Source: Ginsengibacter sp. (GTDB lineage: Bacteria > Bacteroidota > Bacteroidia > Chitinophagales > Chitinophagaceae). From it: DNA of 64,000 nucleotides. The translations under genes and the position numbers were made by a program. The notes below the pieces were generated by a model. The model had not been told where the DNA came from and made no database searches. It saw only the letters and a program-made list of their open reading frames with translations. The stretch spans positions 314-64,313 of the forward strand of contig JBDTSD010000007.1 of NCBI GenBank assembly GCA_039931355.1. The letters are read 5' to 3'. This document shows positions 23,222 through 32,416 of the stretch, one piece after another; within the stretch, counting starts at the first letter, position 1; every line of letters begins with the position of its first letter.

Positions 23222-24043
23222 ATGAAGAATAAATATATATCAACGCAGTCCAATGAATTGCTATCTTATTTCAATGAGCAGAATAAGGCTGGTTTTGATT
23301 ATAGTGAGGCTTTCAGAGCATTGCCAGAGTCAAAGGACAGCACTCTTCGGGAGCTACTTAGCGACATGACAAAACGAGGACTTTTAATGCGATTAAAAGA
23401 AGGTGTTTATTACATCATTCCCTACGAGCAAAAGGCTGAATCATTTATGCCCGACTGGCATTTGATAGCAGAGCATTTGGTAAAAGATGCCAAACACTAT
23501 ATCGGTTACTATTCTGCTTTGCAAATTCATAACCTGATTACTCAACCTTCTTTAAAAGAACAGATTGTTGTTTCCAGACAACTCCGGCCATCAGAAATAA
23601 AAATCAAAAATGTTTCTTTTCAATTTATTTATCACAATGAAAAACATTTTTTTGGAGCAAAAAAAATATGGATAGATAATTTCAACAAGGTGCTTTGCTC
23701 AGACTTAGAAAAAACTTTTGTTGATTGCCTTTTCAAACCTGATTATGCTGGTGGCATGGTTGAAATAGCAAGAGCCATTTATATCTCAAAAGATAAAATC
23801 AAATTTGATACGTTGTTTGAGTATGTCAAAAAATTTAATTCACAAGCGGTAATAAAACGGTTGGGATTTCTTTTAGAAACGCTGGAAATAAATAACAGTA
23901 TAATTGATGAATTACAGAAACTTAAAACTACCTCTTATGTAATTGCGGATACAGAATTACCAAAAACGGGAAAACGAATCAGCAGATGGAGCATTCAGCA
24001 GAATATAGAAACGGAAACAATTAAATCAGCTATTTACACATGA
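23222..24043 (+). CDS. abiEi: Type IV TA antitoxin, AbiEi family transcriptional regulator
   Basis: N-terminal wHTH (LSDMTKRGLLMRLKEGVY), YIGYYSALQIHNL, SDLEKTFVDCL, KRLGFLLE. Confidence 0.88.
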   Translation: MKNKYISTQSNELLSYFNEQNKAGFDYSEAFRALPESKDSTLRELLSDMTKRGLLMRLKEGVYYIIPYEQKAESFMPDWHLIAEHLVKDAKHYIGYYSALQIHNLITQPSLKEQIVVSRQLRPSEIKIKNVSFQFIYHNEKHFFGAKKIWIDNFNKVLCSDLEKTFVDCLFKPDYAGGMVEIARAIYISKDKIKFDTLFEYVKKFNSQAVIKRLGFLLETLEINNSIIDELQKLKTTSYVIADTELPKTGKRISRWSIQQNIETETIKSAIYT

Positions 24044-24864
24044 TTAAGCCCATAGAGATAAAACAGAAGGCAAGAGAAGCGGGCGTTCGTGACCAGCAGA
24101 TAGAAAAGGACTATGTGCTTTCATGGATATTGAATGGTGTTGCACAACATGAACAGCTTTCAAAAATAATTGTATTTAAAGGTGGGACTGTTTTAAAGAA
24201 AATTTATTTCGAAGACTATCGGTTTTCTGAAGACCTTGATTTTACATTACTCAACAATGAAATAACCAATGAACAAATATTTACCTGGTTCAAAGAAACG
24301 TTTGAATATATTTTGGAAGAAGCAAACATAGTGCTCGGAATTATTAACCCCGATAGTAATCGGGGCAGGCCCGAACATGAAGATGGCGGTATCAATTTTT
24401 ACATCAGCTATACCGGTCCGCTTGGCGGGCAAGGCAATAATAAAAGAGTAAAAGTTGATATTTCCAGAAGTGAAAAACTGGAATTTGAACCGGTATTGAA
24501 AACGGGTATCATTGGCTATTCTGATTTAGAAGAACATCAACTATTATGTTATTCGCTTGAAGAAGTGTTGGTAGAAAAAATGCGGACAGTTATGCAGCGG
24601 ATGCAGGCAAGAGATTTTTATGACATCTGGTTTTTATTGGAACACCATGGGATGGATGCAGCATTTCATATAAATGAATTTGCAAAGAAATGTGCCAGCA
24701 AGAATTTGAACTACCTTGATTTCCCTAAAAAATTAGCCGAACGGTTACCACAATACAAAGGACGTTGGAAAAGCTCCATGAATGAACAGATAAAAAACTT
24801 ACCGGATTTTGAACAGGTAGAAAGAGAAGTGCAAAGACATTTAAAGAAATTGAAATTACAATGA
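24040..24864 (+). CDS. abiEii: Type IV TA toxin, AbiEii nucleotidyltransferase
   Basis: EKDYVLSWIL, FKGGTVLKKIYF, RFSEDLDF, EKMRTV, ARDFYDIW; ATGA overlap with abiEi. Confidence 0.92.
   Translation: MIKPIEIKQKAREAGVRDQQIEKDYVLSWILNGVAQHEQLSKIIVFKGGTVLKKIYFEDYRFSEDLDFTLLNNEITNEQIFTWFKETFEYILEEANIVLGIINPDSNRGRPEHEDGGINFYISYTGPLGGQGNNKRVKVDISRSEKLEFEPVLKTGIIGYSDLEEHQLLCYSLEEVLVEKMRTVMQRMQARDFYDIWFLLEHHGMDAAFHINEFAKKCASKNLNYLDFPKKLAERLPQYKGRWKSSMNEQIKNLPDFEQVEREVQRHLKKLKLQ
24347..24364. repeat. cccgatNNNNatcggg palindrome (family Q) in frame inside abiEii
   Basis: ccccgatagtaatcgggg within the segment encoding NPDSNRG. Confidence 0.7.
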
Positions 24865-24865
24865 C

Positions 24866-24952
24866 CAGTAACGGACCGATGGTTAAAGAATGCTGGACAA
24901 ACAAATTTATTCAGCAAAAGCTGAATTGCTTCAATTTTAATCCTTGTTAGCC
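24866..24952 (+). repeat. Degenerate attC-like element after abiEii
   Basis: cagTAAC 1 bp after the stop ... GTTAGCC, with weak internal inverted complementarity. Confidence 0.35.
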
Positions 24953-25172
24953 GCCTTGGAATTTGGCGTCTTCCCGGGAGAGTATAAATGGTGATCGGAA
25001 AAATTTTATTAAAGGAGATAAGATACCCGATAGCCTTGGATTTGATTGGTTAGTGCATGGTGACGGCATTAATTTTTCGCGGAACACCCATAGGGGCTAA
25101 AAAAAGAAGTGAATCTATTGGTCGATGTAAGTTGTACTTTTAAAAAAATTTCTGTATCAAAAATTAAACATA

Positions 25173-25451
25173 ATGGCATCTCCCAAAGATCTTAAGATTC
25201 TAGCTGTTAAGAATTCAAATCCTGAGTTGTATGAAAAAGTAATGAAAGGTGATATGAGTATACAAGATGCATACAATGAAACAAAAAGAATACAGTTAGG
25301 TCTTAGTGAGTTCAGAGGAAAAAACTCTAAGAAAAAAGAATTTAGCACTGATTTTAAAAGAATAATTCAATTGCACAATCCGTCGTCGGATGAACTTATC
25401 ACTGAAATAAAAAAAGCCTATCCATTAACTTGGAAGGAATTTTTAAAATAA
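25173..25451 (+). CDS. Small helical hypothetical protein
   Basis: 92-aa ORF with AT-rich leader; PELYEKVMKGDMSIQDAY resembles a helical motif recalled from ParB-associated proteins. Confidence 0.65.
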   Translation: MASPKDLKILAVKNSNPELYEKVMKGDMSIQDAYNETKRIQLGLSEFRGKNSKKKEFSTDFKRIIQLHNPSSDELITEIKKAYPLTWKEFLK

Positions 25452-25488
25452 ACTTTGTTCCAGGGGTTAAGTTTTTGTTGGTTAACAC

Positions 25489-25496
25489 TACATTTG
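25489..25496 (+). promoter_or_regulatory. -7 promoter box upstream of the sigma-like gene
   Basis: tacatttg matches TAnnTTTG exactly. Confidence 0.5.
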
Positions 25497-25617
25497 TATA
25501 GAGAATTTTACATATTATTTTTAAACCGGAGCGTTTCTGACACCGTAGGGGTTCAATAGTAGCCCCTCTGAATCAACAGAACAACAGTTGCAGAACACTC
25601 CACAAATCTGCACTGTA

Positions 25618-26244
25618 ATGGACAAACAATCCAAGCCGGGTTATTACATTTTCCATCCTGAAAAAGGCAACGAATTATTTTTACTCCGTGCTGCAAAGGC
25701 CAGCGATAAATTGCATGCAAGAGCCGCAAAGAATCAACTCATTATTGACAATGAAGGTTTTCTTCGGGCTACAATTCAAGAATGGGTCGGATTAAAATCA
25801 TTTATTGACTTTGACTATTTGCTTGAAGAAGCACGAATCTCTTTTTTTACAGCCATTGAGAAATATGACTTGAATCAAGATGTTTCAATTCGTACTTACG
25901 CAAAGTTCCATCTCATGGAATTGAGAAGGCAAACTTTTAGGCCAACAAAATTCACGGAGTTTAAAAAAGAATATTGCGGAGAAACATTTTTTCTTCCGAA
26001 TCCTGATTTCAAAAATTTTGACTTGAAAGCAATCGTAATGACTGCTCTGGAAAAAGCACTCACTATACTTGAACAAGAAGTAATCTACATGCACTTTTTT
26101 GAAGGATACAAAAAGAGGCAGATTGCATTGCAACGCCAATGTTCGGAAGCGAGAGTTTGCACCATTGTAAAAAATGCTCTCCCGAAACTCAAAGTATATC
26201 TCCTAAGTATCGGCATCGTTCCCGGATTTCTCGAACTCAATTAA
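25618..26244 (+). CDS. Sigma-70 family factor-like protein (regions 2 and 4 only; ATG 25618 or TTG 25588)
   Basis: AKNQLIIDNEGFL (2.1), LLEEARISFFTAIEKYD (2.2), SIRTYA (2.3), LTILEQEVIYMHFFEGYKKRQIA..SEARVCTIVKNALPKLK (region 4 HTH). Confidence 0.75.
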   Translation: MDKQSKPGYYIFHPEKGNELFLLRAAKASDKLHARAAKNQLIIDNEGFLRATIQEWVGLKSFIDFDYLLEEARISFFTAIEKYDLNQDVSIRTYAKFHLMELRRQTFRPTKFTEFKKEYCGETFFLPNPDFKNFDLKAIVMTALEKALTILEQEVIYMHFFEGYKKRQIALQRQCSEARVCTIVKNALPKLKVYLLSIGIVPGFLELN

Positions 26245-26285
26245 ACAATCAATCAAATAATTTCAAACAAATTAATTCAAACAAA

Positions 26286-28112
26286 ATGGAAGCAACAGTT
26301 AAAACAAATGAGATAGAATCTCTACAAGGTTTAGAACGCCAACGGGCATTTCTTGACACTATCAAAGCAGGGGGCACAAAGGATGATTCCTTTTTCGTTA
26401 CCGAAAAAGTAATGGAGAGTATGCGTGATAGCGGCTACCGCGACATACGCAAAGCTCTTAATGATTTAATGGATAATGCTGAACAAGCCGGAGCAAAGAA
26501 AATTGCAATTATAACCACGACTGAAAAGGAGAATGTAAAAGGTGCAAGAGAAAAAATTTCAAATATTGCTGTTATTGATGATGGACATGGAATGTTCCCA
26601 GAGATGTTAGAGATTGCGGTTAAGTGGGGAGGCACAGACAGACATAACCAAAGAGATGGGTTAGGAAGATTTGGTTTTGGCCTGCCAACCGCATCCATAA
26701 GCGTAACCCGTGTGTATGAAGTTTACTCCAAAACAAAAGGAGGTGATTGGCACAAAGTAAAAGTTGACCTTAATGAAATTGCTAAGAAAGCAATGACAAG
26801 CGGAGGCAACGCATCTTTTACTCCACAGTTTGAAAAAGGAACTCCACCCGCTTTTGTAAAAGAGTATATCAAAAAGCAATGGAAGAAAGACGACCTCGAA
26901 CACGGCACAGTTGTTTTGCTTTTGAATCCTGATAGAATTAGAAGTTATGCTTTACCACAAACTTTTCAACGAAAGATGTTAGAAAATATTGGATTAACCT
27001 ATCGACACTTTATGCCCGATTTAAATTTTTCGGTTAACGATAAGAAAGTTGAAATGATAGACCCACTTTTCCTAAATCCCAATTGTATGGGCTATGATGT
27101 AGGCAACGGTCATTTTGCTGAAGGGCTTGATGAAATGATAATCCCCGTTAAAAATAAGTTGGCAAATGGGAAGGATATTGTTGGTAATATAAGATTGAGG
27201 TTTTCATTTATGCATCCTAAGTTTCAAAAGGGCGACCCAGAGAAATACACTAATAAGGGAGAGATTCCTATCCGAATGAATACCATGAAAGAAAACAATG
27301 GTTATTTCATTGTGTGCAGAGCGGGTCGCCAAATTGATGTTGTGAGGGATACAAATTATCAAAGCAATAATGATAATACAACAATTGTCAACTATGATGT
27401 TAACTGGGGCATTGAATTACACTTTGAACCAATCTTAGATGAACTATTCGGGATTACGACGAATAAGCAACAAGTTGAAATTGATTCTTATCTCTGGGAT
27501 ATTTTTAAAGAGAATAACATACCAGCAATTGTTACTTCTTTTCGCTCAAGGCATAAAAAACTAATAACAAAAGATGAAGTTATCACCGAGGAGAAAAAAG
27601 ATGAGAGCAGAAGTTCAGAACAAATAATGACTGATGCTGACAAGTTCGACCAACTTGAATTGCCTATTTTAAAGAAGGAACAAGGAGAAGAAAAGCTCAG
27701 GGAAAAAGCAGAAGAAATTGCGCAGAAGGAAAATGAAAAAGTCGAGACGGTTGTCGAAAGAATGGAAATAGAAGCAGAGAAAAAGAAATTCAAAATTGAA
27801 TTCACTGACTTCCCTGGGGCACCGTTCTACGATGTTGAAATTTGGGGTAAGCAAATCAGAATTAAGATTAATACTGCACACCGTTTTTATGCTGACATTT
27901 ATTCACAGCAAGACCATCGAGGAAAAACAGCAATTGAACTCTTGTTATTTGTATTTGGAAAATGTGAAGCTGAGTCAGATGGCGAGAAGCAACTTTTTTA
28001 TGGCAACGAAAGATTTGAATGGTCGAAGCAACTTGATTTGAGATTGAAGATGCTTGACAAGCAAGACCCAATGGCTGATAAACTTTCTTTCGTAGAGGAA
28101 GAAGCGAGTTAA
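26286..28112 (+). CDS. MORC-type GHKL ATPase 1 (start placed at ATG 26286)
   Basis: RDSGY, NDLMDNAEQA (N-box), DDGHGM (G1), GRFGFGLPTASIS (G2); S5-like RAGRQID and ELFGITTNKQ; charged helical linker; INTAHRFY tail domain. Confidence 0.88.
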   Translation: MEATVKTNEIESLQGLERQRAFLDTIKAGGTKDDSFFVTEKVMESMRDSGYRDIRKALNDLMDNAEQAGAKKIAIITTTEKENVKGAREKISNIAVIDDGHGMFPEMLEIAVKWGGTDRHNQRDGLGRFGFGLPTASISVTRVYEVYSKTKGGDWHKVKVDLNEIAKKAMTSGGNASFTPQFEKGTPPAFVKEYIKKQWKKDDLEHGTVVLLLNPDRIRSYALPQTFQRKMLENIGLTYRHFMPDLNFSVNDKKVEMIDPLFLNPNCMGYDVGNGHFAEGLDEMIIPVKNKLANGKDIVGNIRLRFSFMHPKFQKGDPEKYTNKGEIPIRMNTMKENNGYFIVCRAGRQIDVVRDTNYQSNNDNTTIVNYDVNWGIELHFEPILDELFGITTNKQQVEIDSYLWDIFKENNIPAIVTSFRSRHKKLITKDEVITEEKKDESRSSEQIMTDADKFDQLELPILKKEQGEEKLREKAEEIAQKENEKVETVVERMEIEAEKKKFKIEFTDFPGAPFYDVEIWGKQIRIKINTAHRFYADIYSQQDHRGKTAIELLLFVFGKCEAESDGEKQLFYGNERFEWSKQLDLRLKMLDKQDPMADKLSFVEEEAS

Positions 28113-28114
28113 GT

Positions 28115-28139
28115 AAAAGGGGGCTAACGTCCCCCTTTT
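28115..28139 (+). terminator. Intra-operon hairpin between the two ATPase genes
   Basis: aaaaggggg-ctaacgt-ccccctttt. Confidence 0.55.
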
Positions 28140-28152
28140 AAATTTCACAAAC

Positions 28153-29643
28153 ATGGAAACAAGTATTATACAGTTTCAGAATTTTATTATTGCTACAAGA
28201 GATTCGGGCTACAAAAGCACTGCATCTGCCTTAGCAGAATTAGTTGACAATGCTATCGAAGCTCATGCGACTAAAGTTGAAATTCGAATTATCAAAGTTG
28301 ATGAATCAGAAAATGAGCAGTATGAAGTTTATGTAGTTGACAATGGAAAAGGAATGACAGAAAACGAACTCAATCTTGCTTTGCAATTCGGAGGGAGTTC
28401 ACGATTCAATTCACGAAGTCAACTTGGTCGCTATGGAATGGGATTACCAAATAGTTCTTTGAGCCAAAGCCGGAGGGTTGAAGTAACGACATGGAAAAAC
28501 AAAGGCGCATTTATCAGCAACTACCTTGATGTTGATGAGGTGATTGATAAAAAACTTACTTATTTGCCAAAACCTAAAAAATCCACAGAATGTTCTTTAC
28601 CAATTCATAGTAAGTCAGGGACTATAGTTCGGTGGAAAAAATGCGACCGCCTGTCGTTTAAGTATTTGAAAAGTTTGGTGAAGCATATCCAATTTGAATT
28701 GGGAAGAATTTTCCGTTATGCAATTTGGCGTGGGGTGGAAATAAAAGTGTGCAATGAAAAAGTAATTGCCTTTGACCCGCTTTTCATTGGCGAAGGAGTG
28801 AGTTTGAAAGGTGGTGTTCCTTATGGCAAGGAATTGCATTACGAAATAAAGTTACCAGGTAATGAAAAAAATATTTCGGATGTGCGGGTGCGATTTATTG
28901 AATTGCCTGTGCAGGATTGGGCAAAGTTGCCTAATGAGGAGAAACGAAGAAACCAAATCACGAAGTGTGCAGGTGTAACAATTCTTCGTGCTGAAAGAGA
29001 AATTGATTACGGTTGGTTTTTCATGGGAGAAAAGCGCAAGGAAAATTATGATGACTGGTGGCGGTGTGAAATTTCTTTTAGTCCTGATTTGGATGAAGTG
29101 TTTGGTGTAACACATACCAAACAAGAAATAAAGCAAACGGAGTTCATGAATAACATTCTTGTGCCTGACATGGAACAAACAGCACGGGCATTGAATAATC
29201 GAGTGCGCTTGAATTTTATTGACCTGAAGAAAACGCATCCTGCAGTTTATTCAAAACAGCAACTTGAACGAACTGATGTGTACTTGCCTGCGCTGAAAAA
29301 AAATGGAGGTGTTGTTACAAAGATGAATGCCAGCAGTAAAATCAAGGGTCTGCAATATGAAATCGTGACGAAGGAATTGAAGGACGACATTTTTTTTGAT
29401 GTCGAAGAAATTCAAAACTGCATTGTATTGACCGTGAACACTGCTCATTTATTTTATGACAAAGTTTTTAAAGCACTGCACGAGCGAAGGATAAACAATG
29501 TAGCAGGGTTTATCAAAGTCATGGAGATGCTGATCTTTGCTGCTGCAAGGTCAGAGTTTGCATTTACTGGAAGAAAGGAAGGCAAGATTATTTCGGACTT
29601 CAAAAAAGAATGGAGTTCTCAGTTAAAAACATTTATTAGTTAA
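28153..29643 (+). CDS. MORC-type GHKL ATPase 2, paralogue of ATPase 1
   Basis: RDSGY, AELVDNAIEA, DNGKGM, GRYGMGLPNSSLS, RAEREID, DEVFGVTHTKQ, VNTAHLFY. Confidence 0.9.
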   Translation: METSIIQFQNFIIATRDSGYKSTASALAELVDNAIEAHATKVEIRIIKVDESENEQYEVYVVDNGKGMTENELNLALQFGGSSRFNSRSQLGRYGMGLPNSSLSQSRRVEVTTWKNKGAFISNYLDVDEVIDKKLTYLPKPKKSTECSLPIHSKSGTIVRWKKCDRLSFKYLKSLVKHIQFELGRIFRYAIWRGVEIKVCNEKVIAFDPLFIGEGVSLKGGVPYGKELHYEIKLPGNEKNISDVRVRFIELPVQDWAKLPNEEKRRNQITKCAGVTILRAEREIDYGWFFMGEKRKENYDDWWRCEISFSPDLDEVFGVTHTKQEIKQTEFMNNILVPDMEQTARALNNRVRLNFIDLKKTHPAVYSKQQLERTDVYLPALKKNGGVVTKMNASSKIKGLQYEIVTKELKDDIFFDVEEIQNCIVLTVNTAHLFYDKVFKALHERRINNVAGFIKVMEMLIFAAARSEFAFTGRKEGKIISDFKKEWSSQLKTFIS

Positions 29644-31664
29644 TGGAAAAGGAAGTAATAAATATAGAGCCGAAATTAAGCAAGGTGCAACTTGAAATGT
29701 TTTTGAATTTCTGCAAGCGGGTGAAGAAATCGGTGAACAGAAAAAGAATTGATGTGAGAATTGAATTTTTGGTGAAGGAGAAAGAGGAAGTGAATGGGCA
29801 ATATAGTGGAAAGGGATTTCATCCACATACAGATTTGGCTTTCATGGAAAATTTGATTTTGGATTTGATGTTGCAAGATTGGGAACTGATAGTGAACAGA
29901 GGAAAGATTTTGCTGGAGTTGGAAACATTGGACATGAAGGATAAAAATCTTGACGATGAAAAAGCGAAAACGAGGCGCAGGCATTTATTAGCCAGAGATG
30001 TGCAACTGAAAGAAACTTCAGTAAGAGATTTCATTCGAGGAATGGAAAAAAGGCGACTAACTTCCAAAGGCTGGCAGTCGATCTTTTCTATTATGCGTGA
30101 TGGCAGTGAATTGAAAAAACTGTTGAATGAAGTAAAGCACCTTGCAACAGAAGACAAGAAGGTTGATGCGCTCAACAAAATTGTAAGGCCTTACATTCAG
30201 GTTGTCGAACCCACAGAAAAATGTGAGCAAACCGGCTTGGCTCTCTCTGACATTTGGAGATACTTCAGACACACCTGGATTAACGAATACAAATCGTTGC
30301 CGGGAAGATCAATGTCAATTTTGATTCGTGATGCTGCTGCACCCAATCACCCGGTGATTGGCATTGCAGCTCTTGGTAGCTCTGTTGCACAACAAACTTG
30401 CAGAGATGAATGGATAGGTTGGAATGGCGAAACATTTATTGAACGATTGAAAAATGACCCATCAGCAAAGCTTGGAAAATGGATTATTGAAACATTGGAA
30501 ATGCTTCTTAGTGAAATCTATCTGAAAGATTTTTTTAAGAGCAAAATCATTTCTCTTTCTGACATCAGAAATCCTTCATCGGAAAAAATAAAGGAGTTGC
30601 GTGAACTGTCGCTTCTGTTTAAGGCCAAGCACATGAACAACCCTGAAACTGCAAAGTTTAGTGTTGGTAACGATGAAATGAGTTGGTCCCAACGAGCCGA
30701 AACAAATTTGTTCAAGAGCAAAAGAGCGACTCTGCTTGCAGAACTGCTCGGAATAAAAATGATGCTGAACAAATATGAGTTCACGAAGGGAACGAAGAAA
30801 GAATTGGAAAGGTGTTTGGAGAATACAGATTTTCGAAATGCTGTAGAAAGATTAGCAAGAAAAGCAAAGTCCATTCACGTTGGAATAAATATGATGGACA
30901 TTATTGTTGCCGGTTCTGTTGCTCCTTATAATCATTTGCTGGGAGGTAAACTTGTTTGTATGATGCTGACGAGCCCTGAACTTACCCAATACTATAATGA
31001 GAAGTATGGGGAATATGTGAGTTTAATTGCTTCTTCTATGAGTGGCAAGGCACTTGTGCGGAAGCCGCAACTTGTAATGCTTGGCACTACAAGTTTGTAT
31101 GGGGTTGGAAGCAGCCAATACAACAGAATAAAAATTCCTGTTGAAGAAATCGGTGGGAAGAAAGGCCACAAAATAGAATACAAGGAACTTGGATTCAGCG
31201 AGGGCTTTGGTTCGTTTCATTTCAGCAGTAACACAATCACTTTAGCAGATGCTGTTGCTGGGCGTGAAAGTGGTAGAAAGCGTGTGAACAGTATTTTCGG
31301 TGAAGGTGCAAATCCATTGATAAGAAAGTTGAAAGACGCAATGGAGCATTTAGAGTTGGAGAGTAATCCAATTTTAAATCATCGTAACAAAAGAGTAGTA
31401 TATGGGATTGCTTTAGCAGAAAATTTTGGTGATGTTTTGCTGGGCTTAGCCGAGCGACCTAAGTATTTAATACCACAAGGAAAGCCAAAATTGCAAAGCG
31501 AGTTGATTGGCAAGTATTGGATAAAGCGATGGCTACTTAACCGAATTAAGAATGATGAAATTTTAGAAAAAGTTAATATGCATTCTCTATCATATCCGAT
31601 CACACATGGAGCAAGAGTGCCGCTAAATGAAGACGAAAATCAACTGGCATTATTTAATACTTGA
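29643..31664 (+). CDS. druA: DruA / DUF4338-like protein
   Basis: WRYFRHTW..LPGRSMSILIRDAAAPNHPVIGIAAL, RDEWIGW, GSVAPYNHLLGGKLV, GTTSLYGVGSSQYNR; TAATG coupling to ATPase 2. Confidence 0.78.
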   Translation: MEKEVINIEPKLSKVQLEMFLNFCKRVKKSVNRKRIDVRIEFLVKEKEEVNGQYSGKGFHPHTDLAFMENLILDLMLQDWELIVNRGKILLELETLDMKDKNLDDEKAKTRRRHLLARDVQLKETSVRDFIRGMEKRRLTSKGWQSIFSIMRDGSELKKLLNEVKHLATEDKKVDALNKIVRPYIQVVEPTEKCEQTGLALSDIWRYFRHTWINEYKSLPGRSMSILIRDAAAPNHPVIGIAALGSSVAQQTCRDEWIGWNGETFIERLKNDPSAKLGKWIIETLEMLLSEIYLKDFFKSKIISLSDIRNPSSEKIKELRELSLLFKAKHMNNPETAKFSVGNDEMSWSQRAETNLFKSKRATLLAELLGIKMMLNKYEFTKGTKKELERCLENTDFRNAVERLARKAKSIHVGINMMDIIVAGSVAPYNHLLGGKLVCMMLTSPELTQYYNEKYGEYVSLIASSMSGKALVRKPQLVMLGTTSLYGVGSSQYNRIKIPVEEIGGKKGHKIEYKELGFSEGFGSFHFSSNTITLADAVAGRESGRKRVNSIFGEGANPLIRKLKDAMEHLELESNPILNHRNKRVVYGIALAENFGDVLLGLAERPKYLIPQGKPKLQSELIGKYWIKRWLLNRIKNDEILEKVNMHSLSYPITHGARVPLNEDENQLALFNT

Positions 31665-31677
31665 TAAAACAAATCTT

Positions 31678-32169
31678 ATGGCAAGGAAAGTTTTTTTTAG
31701 TTTCCAATTTCAAAAGGATCATTGGCGGGCAGGGCAGGTGAGAAGTATTGGAGCGATAGAAGGTAACTCTGAAGTCTCAGATAACAAATGGGCAGAAATA
31801 AAAGCTCAAGGAGATAACGAAGTAAAAAAATGGATTAATGAAAATATGATTGGGAGAACTTGTTTAGTTGTTCTAATCGGTAATGGAACAGCTGATAGGA
31901 AATGGATAAACTACGAAATTGAAAAGGCTTGGAACGACAAAAGAGGTGTTGTCGGAATATATGTCCACAATTTAAAAAATAGCGCAGGTGAACAAGATGA
32001 CAAAGGTTATAACCCATTCGATTATGTATATCATGATGGAAAGAAACTTTCATCTATTGTAAAAACATTCAATTCAATTTATTCAACCAGTACATACGTT
32101 TACGATGATATAAAAAATAATCTTGTGAATCTTATAGAAGAGGCTATTAAAATTCGGGACAATAATTGA
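31678..32169 (+). CDS. thsB: ThsB-like TIR-domain protein (DUF1863/MTH538; start placed at ATG 31678)
   Basis: MARKVFFSFQF..DHWRAGQVR, IKKW-like EVKKWINENM, LVVLIG..TADRKWINYEI (catalytic Glu), GVVGIYVHNLK, GYNPF. Confidence 0.88.
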   Translation: MARKVFFSFQFQKDHWRAGQVRSIGAIEGNSEVSDNKWAEIKAQGDNEVKKWINENMIGRTCLVVLIGNGTADRKWINYEIEKAWNDKRGVVGIYVHNLKNSAGEQDDKGYNPFDYVYHDGKKLSSIVKTFNSIYSTSTYVYDDIKNNLVNLIEEAIKIRDNN

Positions 32170-32213
32170 AAACGCAAAAATTTACCTATTGTGAGGATTT
32201 TGTTTAATCCCAA

Positions 32214-32239
32214 GGTGCCGCCAGCATCCGCTGGTGACC
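32214..32239. repeat. Short REP-like hairpin at the right edge of the island
   Basis: ggtgccgccagc-atcc-gctggtgacc. Confidence 0.4.
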
Positions 32240-32416
32240 ACTATTAAAATAAAATCTGAAATGCTATTTAATCGTTTTTTCACATCTCCCCAACGAAACT
32301 GGACTTCCTGATCCTCTTCCCCGTCATCTCAAAAATTGCAGTGACCAATTCGGTGCAAAAAGCAGCGAACCGCTCCACCGCATAAATAAAAAACTCCTCG
32401 GCACTTTACGATTCCC

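Follow-up and report, generated by a model that had tools for sequence, protein, structure and literature searches.

The 64,000-nucleotide window analysed here (positions 314 to 64,313 of contig JBDTSD010000007.1, Ginsengibacter sp., Bacteroidota) carries four adjacent forward-strand genes that encode a sigma factor, two MORC-like GHKL ATPases, here called G1 and G2, and a long DruA protein (DUF4338). Together with two RNA elements they form a complete, selectively maintained cassette in the order leader RNA, sigma, G1, terminator-like hairpin, G2, long DruA. The structured leader RNA (25526..25617) precedes the gene for a private sigma-70-family factor with regions 2 and 4 (25618..26244; 208 amino acids (AA)), whose start was set from a protein alignment. 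G1 (26286..28112; 608 AA) is the longer of the two ATPases and has a charged insert. The first ATG of its open reading frame (ORF) is at 26139, but homologues, among them a 99 % identical database protein of 608 AA, favour the start at 26286. A consensus scan located a GC-rich hairpin followed by a T-run, resembling a terminator or attenuator, at 28119..28145 in the interval between G1 and G2. G2 (28153..29643; 496 AA), with which long DruA is constantly paired, precedes the druA gene (29643..31664; 673 AA), which overlaps the G2 stop codon by one base in a TAATG junction at 29641-29645. The G1, G2 and DruA ORFs are co-oriented. An earlier, sequence-only reading of this DNA had proposed these three genes as a candidate system and had described the TAATG-joined last gene as DUF4338-like. 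The three genes and the junction are real, but the sigma gene, the leader RNA and the hairpin between G1 and G2 were missed.

Since a scan of genome contigs with a single DruA protein returned only one locus, DruA homologues were identified by alignment against metagenome contigs. This yielded 80 metagenome loci, which were supplemented with loci from genomes, assemblies and plasmids, and 84 related loci were compared. Dozens of unrelated contigs show this gene order, far above chance, and the proposed trio is conserved in this sense. G2 lies immediately upstream of DruA in 55 of the 59 loci with enough upstream sequence. At L033, G2 was missed only because of overlapping ORF calls, and the true exceptions are L027, L043 and L075. 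In 57 of 65 loci, G2 and druA overlap or are separated by no more than 15 nucleotides (nt). G2 and DruA are an invariant, tightly coupled gene pair.

In the closely related loci L043 (8984-11953) and L027 (3671-6661), an uncharacterised protein of 336-343 AA occupies the place of G2 before DruA. It may be a replacement of the ATPase partner. A cyclic nucleoside monophosphate-binding protein is also encoded upstream in L043. In 17 loci (L002 12122-13575, L001 3615-5099 and 15 others), an uncharacterised protein of about 350 AA and a YunG-like protein of 133 AA are encoded as a pair beside G2-DruA.

Clustering of the neighbouring genes revealed two recurrent accessory modules. In the first, a sigma-like gene stands beside G1 in varying order and orientation, and this holds in most G1 loci. 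The second is a helicase cassette, which starts with c3, a protein of about 975 AA without a match in Pfam, PADLOC or NCBIfam. It continues with DruD (PADLOC DruD1, 4e-104) and DruE (DruE1, E-value 0), which contains DEAD and MZB domains, and a PD-(D/E)xK nuclease often follows. The occurrence of the two modules was counted in the 25 loci with about 8-10 kb on both sides. Eleven of these full-flank loci carry only sigma+G1, eight only DruE, four both and two neither, and these states are interspersed across the DruA tree. G1 lies within 10 kb of DruA in 15 of the 25, and G1 and DruE are negatively associated (Fisher p 0.015; 25 loci, uncorrected for phylogeny). The helicase part is missing and sigma+G1 alone is attached in the window and in roughly 40 % of loci.

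These counts change the picture in two respects. G2 had been regarded as a replacement for DruE, but G2-DruA stands beside DruD-DruE1 in 12 of the 25 loci, and the tandem ATPase pair is not an invariant unit, as G2 occurs without G1 in about 40 % of loci. If anything stands in for DruE, sigma+G1, which tends to alternate with it, is the candidate and not G2. DruE is not always adjacent, being absent within about 10 kb in 13 of the 25 loci, and the window cassette contains no restriction-modification (R-M) genes.

The association with further genes varies in the same modular manner. Four G1 homologues that were chosen solely for their long contigs all lie beside a sigma-like gene and DruA. One of them forms a single co-directional cluster with DruD-DruE-nuclease, a second lacks a helicase, a third lacks G2 and the fourth is accompanied by a second sigma-G1 pair. 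A plasmid of a Leisingera isolate carries G1-like, G2-like, DruA, DruE1 and NERD genes. In one clade (L094 11558-17592 and L085), c3 is followed by a SNF2/DpdE-like helicase of about 1,014 AA in place of DruD-DruE. On a haloarchaeal plasmid (L101, NZ_CP127176.1, 11806-21596), genes for SspF/DndF-like, SspG-like and FtsK-like proteins come directly after a long DruA gene, and a DruE-like helicase is encoded in a divergent operon alongside. This gene order indicates that DruA also couples to DndFGH-type machinery. Because of these varied neighbours, G2-DruA can be regarded as a fixed core to which various large ATP-driven modules are joined. Integrases, transposases, plasmid genes and other defence genes are found near the homologous loci. 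In a sample of 401 genomes of the phylum, only the one analysed here encodes a full-length long DruA, and the cassette is distributed sporadically, like defence genes.

The absence of the helicase part was checked at the genome level in two genomes, that of the window and that of its closest relative L001, an Ohtaekwangia metagenome-assembled genome. In the genome carrying the cassette, which is 94 % complete, no MZB domain (PF09369), DruE1 homologue or DruD homologue was found, and the L001 genome has no MZB match. The cassette proteins have no PADLOC match to DruB, DruC or DruD, of which DruD alone was covered by the genome-wide search. Between the window and L001, G2 is 90 % and DruA 87 % identical, and the ratios of nonsynonymous to synonymous substitutions (dN/dS) are 0.068 for G2 and 0.071 for DruA. 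Both genes are under strong purifying selection. Since neither genome contains a DruE-type helicase, yet purifying selection on the pair is strong, this is a maintained state, and the cassette is a helicase-less variant of the long-DruA, Druantia type I-like family. This helicase-less cassette is probably a defence system. The accessory module has a different history. G1 of the window and of L001 are only 33 % identical and the sigma genes belong to different subgroups, which indicates that the sigma-G1 module was replaced while the G2-DruA core stayed. Both sigma-G1 subtypes are present in L098.

The DruA protein matches Pfam DruA (3e-31) and, over residues 62-667, the 675-position PADLOC model DruA1 (6e-175), and over 3,500 homologous proteins were found. 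Across 31 sequences with identities as low as 47 %, 112 columns are invariant, including G434, G435, K436 and E554. The structure model has a predicted local distance difference test score (pLDDT) of 83. The invariant segment Y429...G434-G435-K436 follows a beta-strand, in a position as for the coenzyme A loop. Aravind's group assigns DUF4338 to the GNAT acetyltransferase domains and also describes fusions of it to DndF (PMC10853773), and the putative acyltransferase fold of DruA is taken from this literature. In the sequence-only reading, DruA had been proposed as a putative catalytic or DNA-modifying subunit. A comparison of the DruA model with the predicted viral structures of BFVD gave significant matches to uncharacterised giant-virus proteins (Faunusvirus, E-value 1.4e-8; Yasminevirus, 6e-6) and, more weakly, a fragment from a tailed phage.

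Both ATPases match Pfam HATPase_c_3 (G1, 1.4e-17; G2, 6.6e-25), and all five motifs that had been listed for the pair, namely RDSGY, GR[FY]GxGLP, RAxRxID, FGxTxxKQ and NTAHxFY, occur in both translations. A comparison of the family profiles with hhalign gave a probability of 100 and an E-value of 4.7e-89 over 490 aligned columns at 24 % identity. By this profile evidence, the two families are full-length paralogues. They have in common a C-terminal domain with N..H.FY, R.E and WS motifs, whose conserved residues in G2 are N429, H432, F434, R466, E468 and W487. The closest solved relatives by sequence, for the GHKL domain only, are MORC2, MORC3 and MORC4, followed by MutL. The AlphaFold model of G2 (pLDDT 82.6) extends this similarity. 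In a Foldseek search of the PDB, the ATPase modules of MORC3, MORC2 and MORC4 were the best matches (E-value 3e-14, about 400 columns, template modelling scores of 0.50-0.58) and ranked ahead of Hsp90, SMCHD1, Topo VI-B and MutL. As these matches are the best and span the GHKL domain plus the S5-like transducer domain, the label MORC-like GHKL+S5 is justified at the fold level. For G1, we infer the same architecture from its full-length paralogy to G2. The earlier description of two paralogous GHKL+S5 ATPases thus agrees with both the profile alignment and the fold of the G2 model. The G2 family is large, since its profile retrieved 1,482 representatives of 50 % identity clusters at an E-value of at most 1e-30 among 1.84 billion.

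The two families differ in their catalytic motifs. G2 has the Bergerat motifs, with E29, N33, D63, G65 and the GRYGMGLP block (G92-G97) invariant across 37 sequences, and all G2 proteins keep the N-box Glu. In G1, the N, DxGxG and GxGxG motifs are present, and residue 59 is an Asp instead of the catalytic Glu (ALNDLMDN). This Asp of the ALNDLxDN motif is found in every G1 homologue at about 48 % identity or above, and more distant G1 proteins keep Glu; among 94 matched homologues, 37 have Asp and 57 have Glu. That the Asp is a mutation of the window alone was considered and rejected, as it is fixed across the window-type subclade. The substitution suggests that the ATPase of window-type G1 proteins is slowed.

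The sigma factor aligns to positions 2-165 of the 165-position TIGR02937 (sigma70-ECF) model with 42.7 bits, 0.2 below the cut-off of 42.9, and to Pfam Sigma70_r4 with 24.0 bits. Its homologues beside G1 elsewhere match Sigma70_r2 plus r4, and its region 4 resembles the SigF, SigG and FliA groups. The 92-nt leader contains a long-range helix P1 (25528-25535 with 25594-25601), whose 3' strand carries CUCC. The leader also forms two hairpins, P3 (25547-25567) and one at its 3' side (25584-25616), which stops a single base ahead of the start codon. A common layout, consisting of a 5' GGAG(G)-GUU strand, an internal hairpin, a 3' AAC-CUCC strand and a final hairpin, is found in the window and 17 other sigma loci. 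In most of these loci, CCUCC of the final hairpin pairs with the Shine-Dalgarno sequence. In the leaders of the Bacteroidota type (window and L098a), the final hairpin instead stops one to three bases short of the AUG. A compensatory change from G-C to A-U distinguishes these two leaders. The CUCC strand has two possible pairing partners, the 5' strand and the ribosome-binding region, which suggests a translational switch for sigma.

Statistical evidence for the leader structure was obtained from single sequences and from subgroup alignments. The minimum free energies of single-sequence folds have z-scores from -0.5 to -4.9 (mean about -2.7) over the 18 loci. For a MAFFT alignment of ten leaders including the window, RNAalifold predicted the long-range helix and a hairpin. 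In this alignment, 87.4 % of cells pair compared to 77.6 % in shuffles (reached by 0 of 500), and two-sided, compensatory changes occur in 7 of 14 pairs (reached by 1 of 500 shuffles), whereas pairing in slid controls falls to 30-63 %. The other leader subtype (b) has the same nested architecture with six compensatory pairs. When the 18 leaders were aligned together with MAFFT, either entire or as the inner domain, the 5' anchors were misaligned and RNAalifold therefore predicted no pairs; only subgroup alignments worked. The inner helix P2 (GUUYRY with RYRAAC) was recognised by eye and in single-sequence folds, and is unconfirmed by the alignment statistics. A search of window positions 24800-32400 against Rfam gave no leader match at an E-value of at most 1.

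The sequence TACATTTG at 25489-25496, about 30 nt upstream of the leader, fits TAnnTTTG, the -7 promoter consensus of Bacteroidota, and in other phyla a TATAAT-like box is found at the equivalent place. These boxes suggest that the leader is transcribed by the housekeeping sigma factor. At least 12 other loci, which belong to different lineages, have a GC-rich counterpart of the hairpin between G1 and G2 at this position, and because it recurs at this spot, a terminator or attenuator probably parts sigma-G1 from G2-druA.

The cassette sits in a small low-GC island beside an AbiE system. A 9-kb block that includes both has a lower G+C content than its flanks. Housekeeping genes border it, with pyruvate:ferredoxin oxidoreductase at one end and a CitMHS/ArsB-family transporter, aroQ, carA, rplQ and rpoA at the other. 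Neither a tRNA gene nor an integrase was found in the 64-kb window. Directly upstream of the cassette, a complete AbiEi/AbiEii pair (23222-24864; PADLOC E-95 and E-94) is encoded; AbiEi/AbiEii is a type IV toxin-antitoxin system that acts by abortive infection. Downstream, a gene for a ThsB-like TIR protein (31678..32169, forward strand; PADLOC ThsB1 1.5e-69, Pfam ThsB_TIR 8.8e-24) begins 13 nt past druA. Its membership in the cassette was considered and rejected, because no TIR homologue occurs in any of the 84 related loci, and L001, the nearest relative, has other genes downstream of druA. It is probably a separate gene of the island, outside the conserved cassette. No ThsA lies beside it, and no canonical ThsA was found in the genome. 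The sole SIR2_2 protein of the genome (448 AA) is encoded on another contig (G000:C124:9352-9801; L102 946-2292, minus strand) and has weak TIR/ThsB-like and STALD-like matches. It could be a partner of the orphan ThsB or a separate defence gene.

Taken as a whole, we consider it reasonably probable that the cassette provides anti-phage or anti-plasmid defence, with the G2-DruA core acting on foreign DNA and sigma+G1 serving as a regulatory or output arm. G2 would be an ATP-driven dimerising clamp in complex with the acyltransferase-fold DruA, and this core would sense or mark foreign DNA or its bound proteins. In the regulatory or output arm, G1, probably a slow ATPase owing to the Asp at the catalytic-base position, would control the private sigma factor, and the synthesis of this factor would be held off by the leader RNA occluding the start region. 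Once released, sigma could redirect RNA polymerase, which would either induce the system or arrest transcription in the infected cell. In other loci, the DruE helicase cassette would give a different output. A bolder form of this proposal is tentative and, in our estimation, doubtful: the cassette may be an autonomous immune system of a new type, in which a MORC-like clamp and a DruA acyltransferase recognise or mark invading DNA and the output is transcriptional instead of nucleolytic. An RNA-gated private sigma, under a catalytically slowed MORC paralogue, would then reprogram or arrest RNA polymerase. If true, this would be a bacterial counterpart of MORC-based silencing, a parallel that the sequence-only reading had also drawn and that is pure inference.

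Several observations weigh against the defence proposal or limit it. The 80 metagenome loci are the best of at least 558 metagenome matches and thus a biased sample, and the alternation of G1 and DruE comes from only 25 loci that were not corrected for relatedness. A fold search of the whole DruA model against the PDB gave nothing significant, with MYST and Eis acetyltransferases recurring at E-values of about 1, and a comparison of the DruA sequence profile with PDB sequences returned noise only and matched no solved GNAT. The functional link between sigma and G1 is drawn from synteny alone, and G1 is a MORC-type paralogue of G2 and not an anti-sigma kinase of the SpoIIAB type. A covariance model built from five subtype-b leaders missed the window leader even with filters off and found only its own training sequences; because of this failure, the two leader subtypes are linked by architecture and alignment statistics and not by a single model. 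The literature yielded no experiment on the cassette or on any long-DruA system. Furthermore, no nuclease or other killing or degrading effector is recognisable in the four cassette proteins, and for this reason the output step is guesswork.

The lack of a recognisable nuclease in the helicase-less cassette would also suit abortive infection, in which DruA is a toxic GNAT-type acyltransferase that acts on an essential host molecule, such as charged tRNA in the manner of TacT and AtaT, and G2, G1 and sigma sense and gate it. The GNAT annotation of DUF4338 (PMC10853773), the weak and recurrent fold matches to MYST and Eis acetyltransferases, and the control that a leader on sigma translation and a hairpin before G2-druA could exert over a dangerous product are consistent with this explanation. 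However, DruA also partners DNA-directed machines (the DruE helicase, SNF2 and DndFGH-/SspFGH-like proteins), which points to a role on DNA. Its 673 AA and large helical inserts set it apart from the GNAT toxins, which are small, and no antitoxin-like partner was identified. We regard a toxic DruA as unlikely. A function outside defence, as a regulatory module of a mobile element or a stress circuit whose sigma factor and ATPases control the life cycle of the element or host genes, appears rather improbable. Although a private sigma with an RNA leader, the integrases, transposases and plasmid genes near homologous loci, and the lack of a recognised effector domain would fit such a function, DruA is a component of the experimentally validated type I Druantia, and G2-DruA is repeatedly found beside DruD, DruE1 and other defence helicases. 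The AbiE and ThsB neighbours in the window and the sporadic, defence-gene-like distribution likewise argue for defence.

The unity and the integrity of the cassette can be questioned as well. It could consist of two independent systems, sigma-G1 and G2-DruA, that merely accumulate in defence islands, since each pair occurs without the other, their order and orientation vary, a terminator-like hairpin lies between them and sigma-G1 is swapped independently of G2-DruA. This is very unlikely given that all four sampled G1 homologues adjoin DruA, that many of the top G1 and DruA homologues lie on the same contigs, that G1 is located within 10 kb of DruA in 15 of the 25 full-flank loci and that G1 and G2 are alike in their whole architecture, including the C-terminal domain. 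That the cassette is a defunct, decaying leftover of type I Druantia after the loss of DruB-E is hardly credible: the canonical partners are indeed absent from the genome, but all four ORFs are intact and keep the family-invariant residues, dN/dS is about 0.07 between two helicase-less genomes, and helicase-less loci recur throughout the DruA tree. Defence by a G2-DruA core with a sigma+G1 arm is the explanation that we favour.

To our knowledge, how type I Druantia works has yet to be established, and least is understood about DruA. A MORC-like ATPase almost always accompanies long DruA, and this near-constant partner names a missing component and provides a two-protein core that is open to biochemistry. 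Selection maintains this core even where DruE is absent, so an independent activity must reside in it. The sigma factor, the leader RNA and the exchange of modules offer ways to study the activation of such systems. In plants and animals, foreign DNA is silenced by MORC ATPases, and the origin of this function would become testable with a MORC-like defence module from bacteria.

Among known systems, the closest is type I Druantia, which reportedly comprises DruA-DruB-DruC-DruD-DruE and was validated experimentally as a defence system by Doron et al. in 2018. The DruA described here matches the long PADLOC DruA1 model end to end, and G2-DruA stands beside DruD1 and DruE1 in about half of the related loci. 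In contrast, the two MORC-like ATPases and the sigma factor of the window cassette are found in no described Druantia type. DruE, a large YprA-like helicase with a DUF1998/MZB domain, is missing here, and the helicase-bearing relatives have c3 where DruB and DruC would be. A summary of type I Druantia is given in PMC7251935. No paper that names or tests the cassette and no description of a GHKL-DruA pairing were found in the literature, and no such ATPase is mentioned in a recent preprint on the YprA family of helicases, to which DruE belongs.

The ATPases themselves can be compared with the prokaryotic MORC and paraMORC proteins surveyed by Iyer, Abhiman and Aravind in 2008 (PMC2292703). These also combine GHKL+S5 with family-specific C-terminal domains in operons of conflict systems, often together with superfamily II helicases and nucleases. 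The survey lists only helicase, nuclease and methylase partners, whereas the partners here are a DUF4338 protein and a sigma factor, a neighbourhood that does not occur in it. The best PADLOC and NCBIfam match of G1 and G2 is MzaB of the MZA system, with which they share an N-terminal GHKL ATP-binding domain (E-values from 1e-16 to 3e-21). Only the first 130-210 residues or so align, the NCBIfam scores are 45 and 76 bits compared to a cut-off of 850, and no other Mza genes are present.

The arrangement of a GHKL protein encoded with a transcription factor ahead of an immune operon is reminiscent of SpoIIAB/sigma-F and of CapK-CapS, in which a GHKL protein and a regulator switch immune operons on in response to single-stranded DNA (PMC13373217). 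G1, with 608 AA, is of the MORC type instead of a small SpoIIAB-type kinase, it has no STAS partner, and here synteny is the only link between G1 and sigma. Finally, the cassette resembles the DndFGH and SspFGH restriction modules with GNAT (DUF4338) fusions (PMC10853773). It has no Dnd or Ssp genes and its ATPase partner is of the GHKL type, but in both cases a DruA-type domain is tied to a large ATP-driven, DNA-directed machine.

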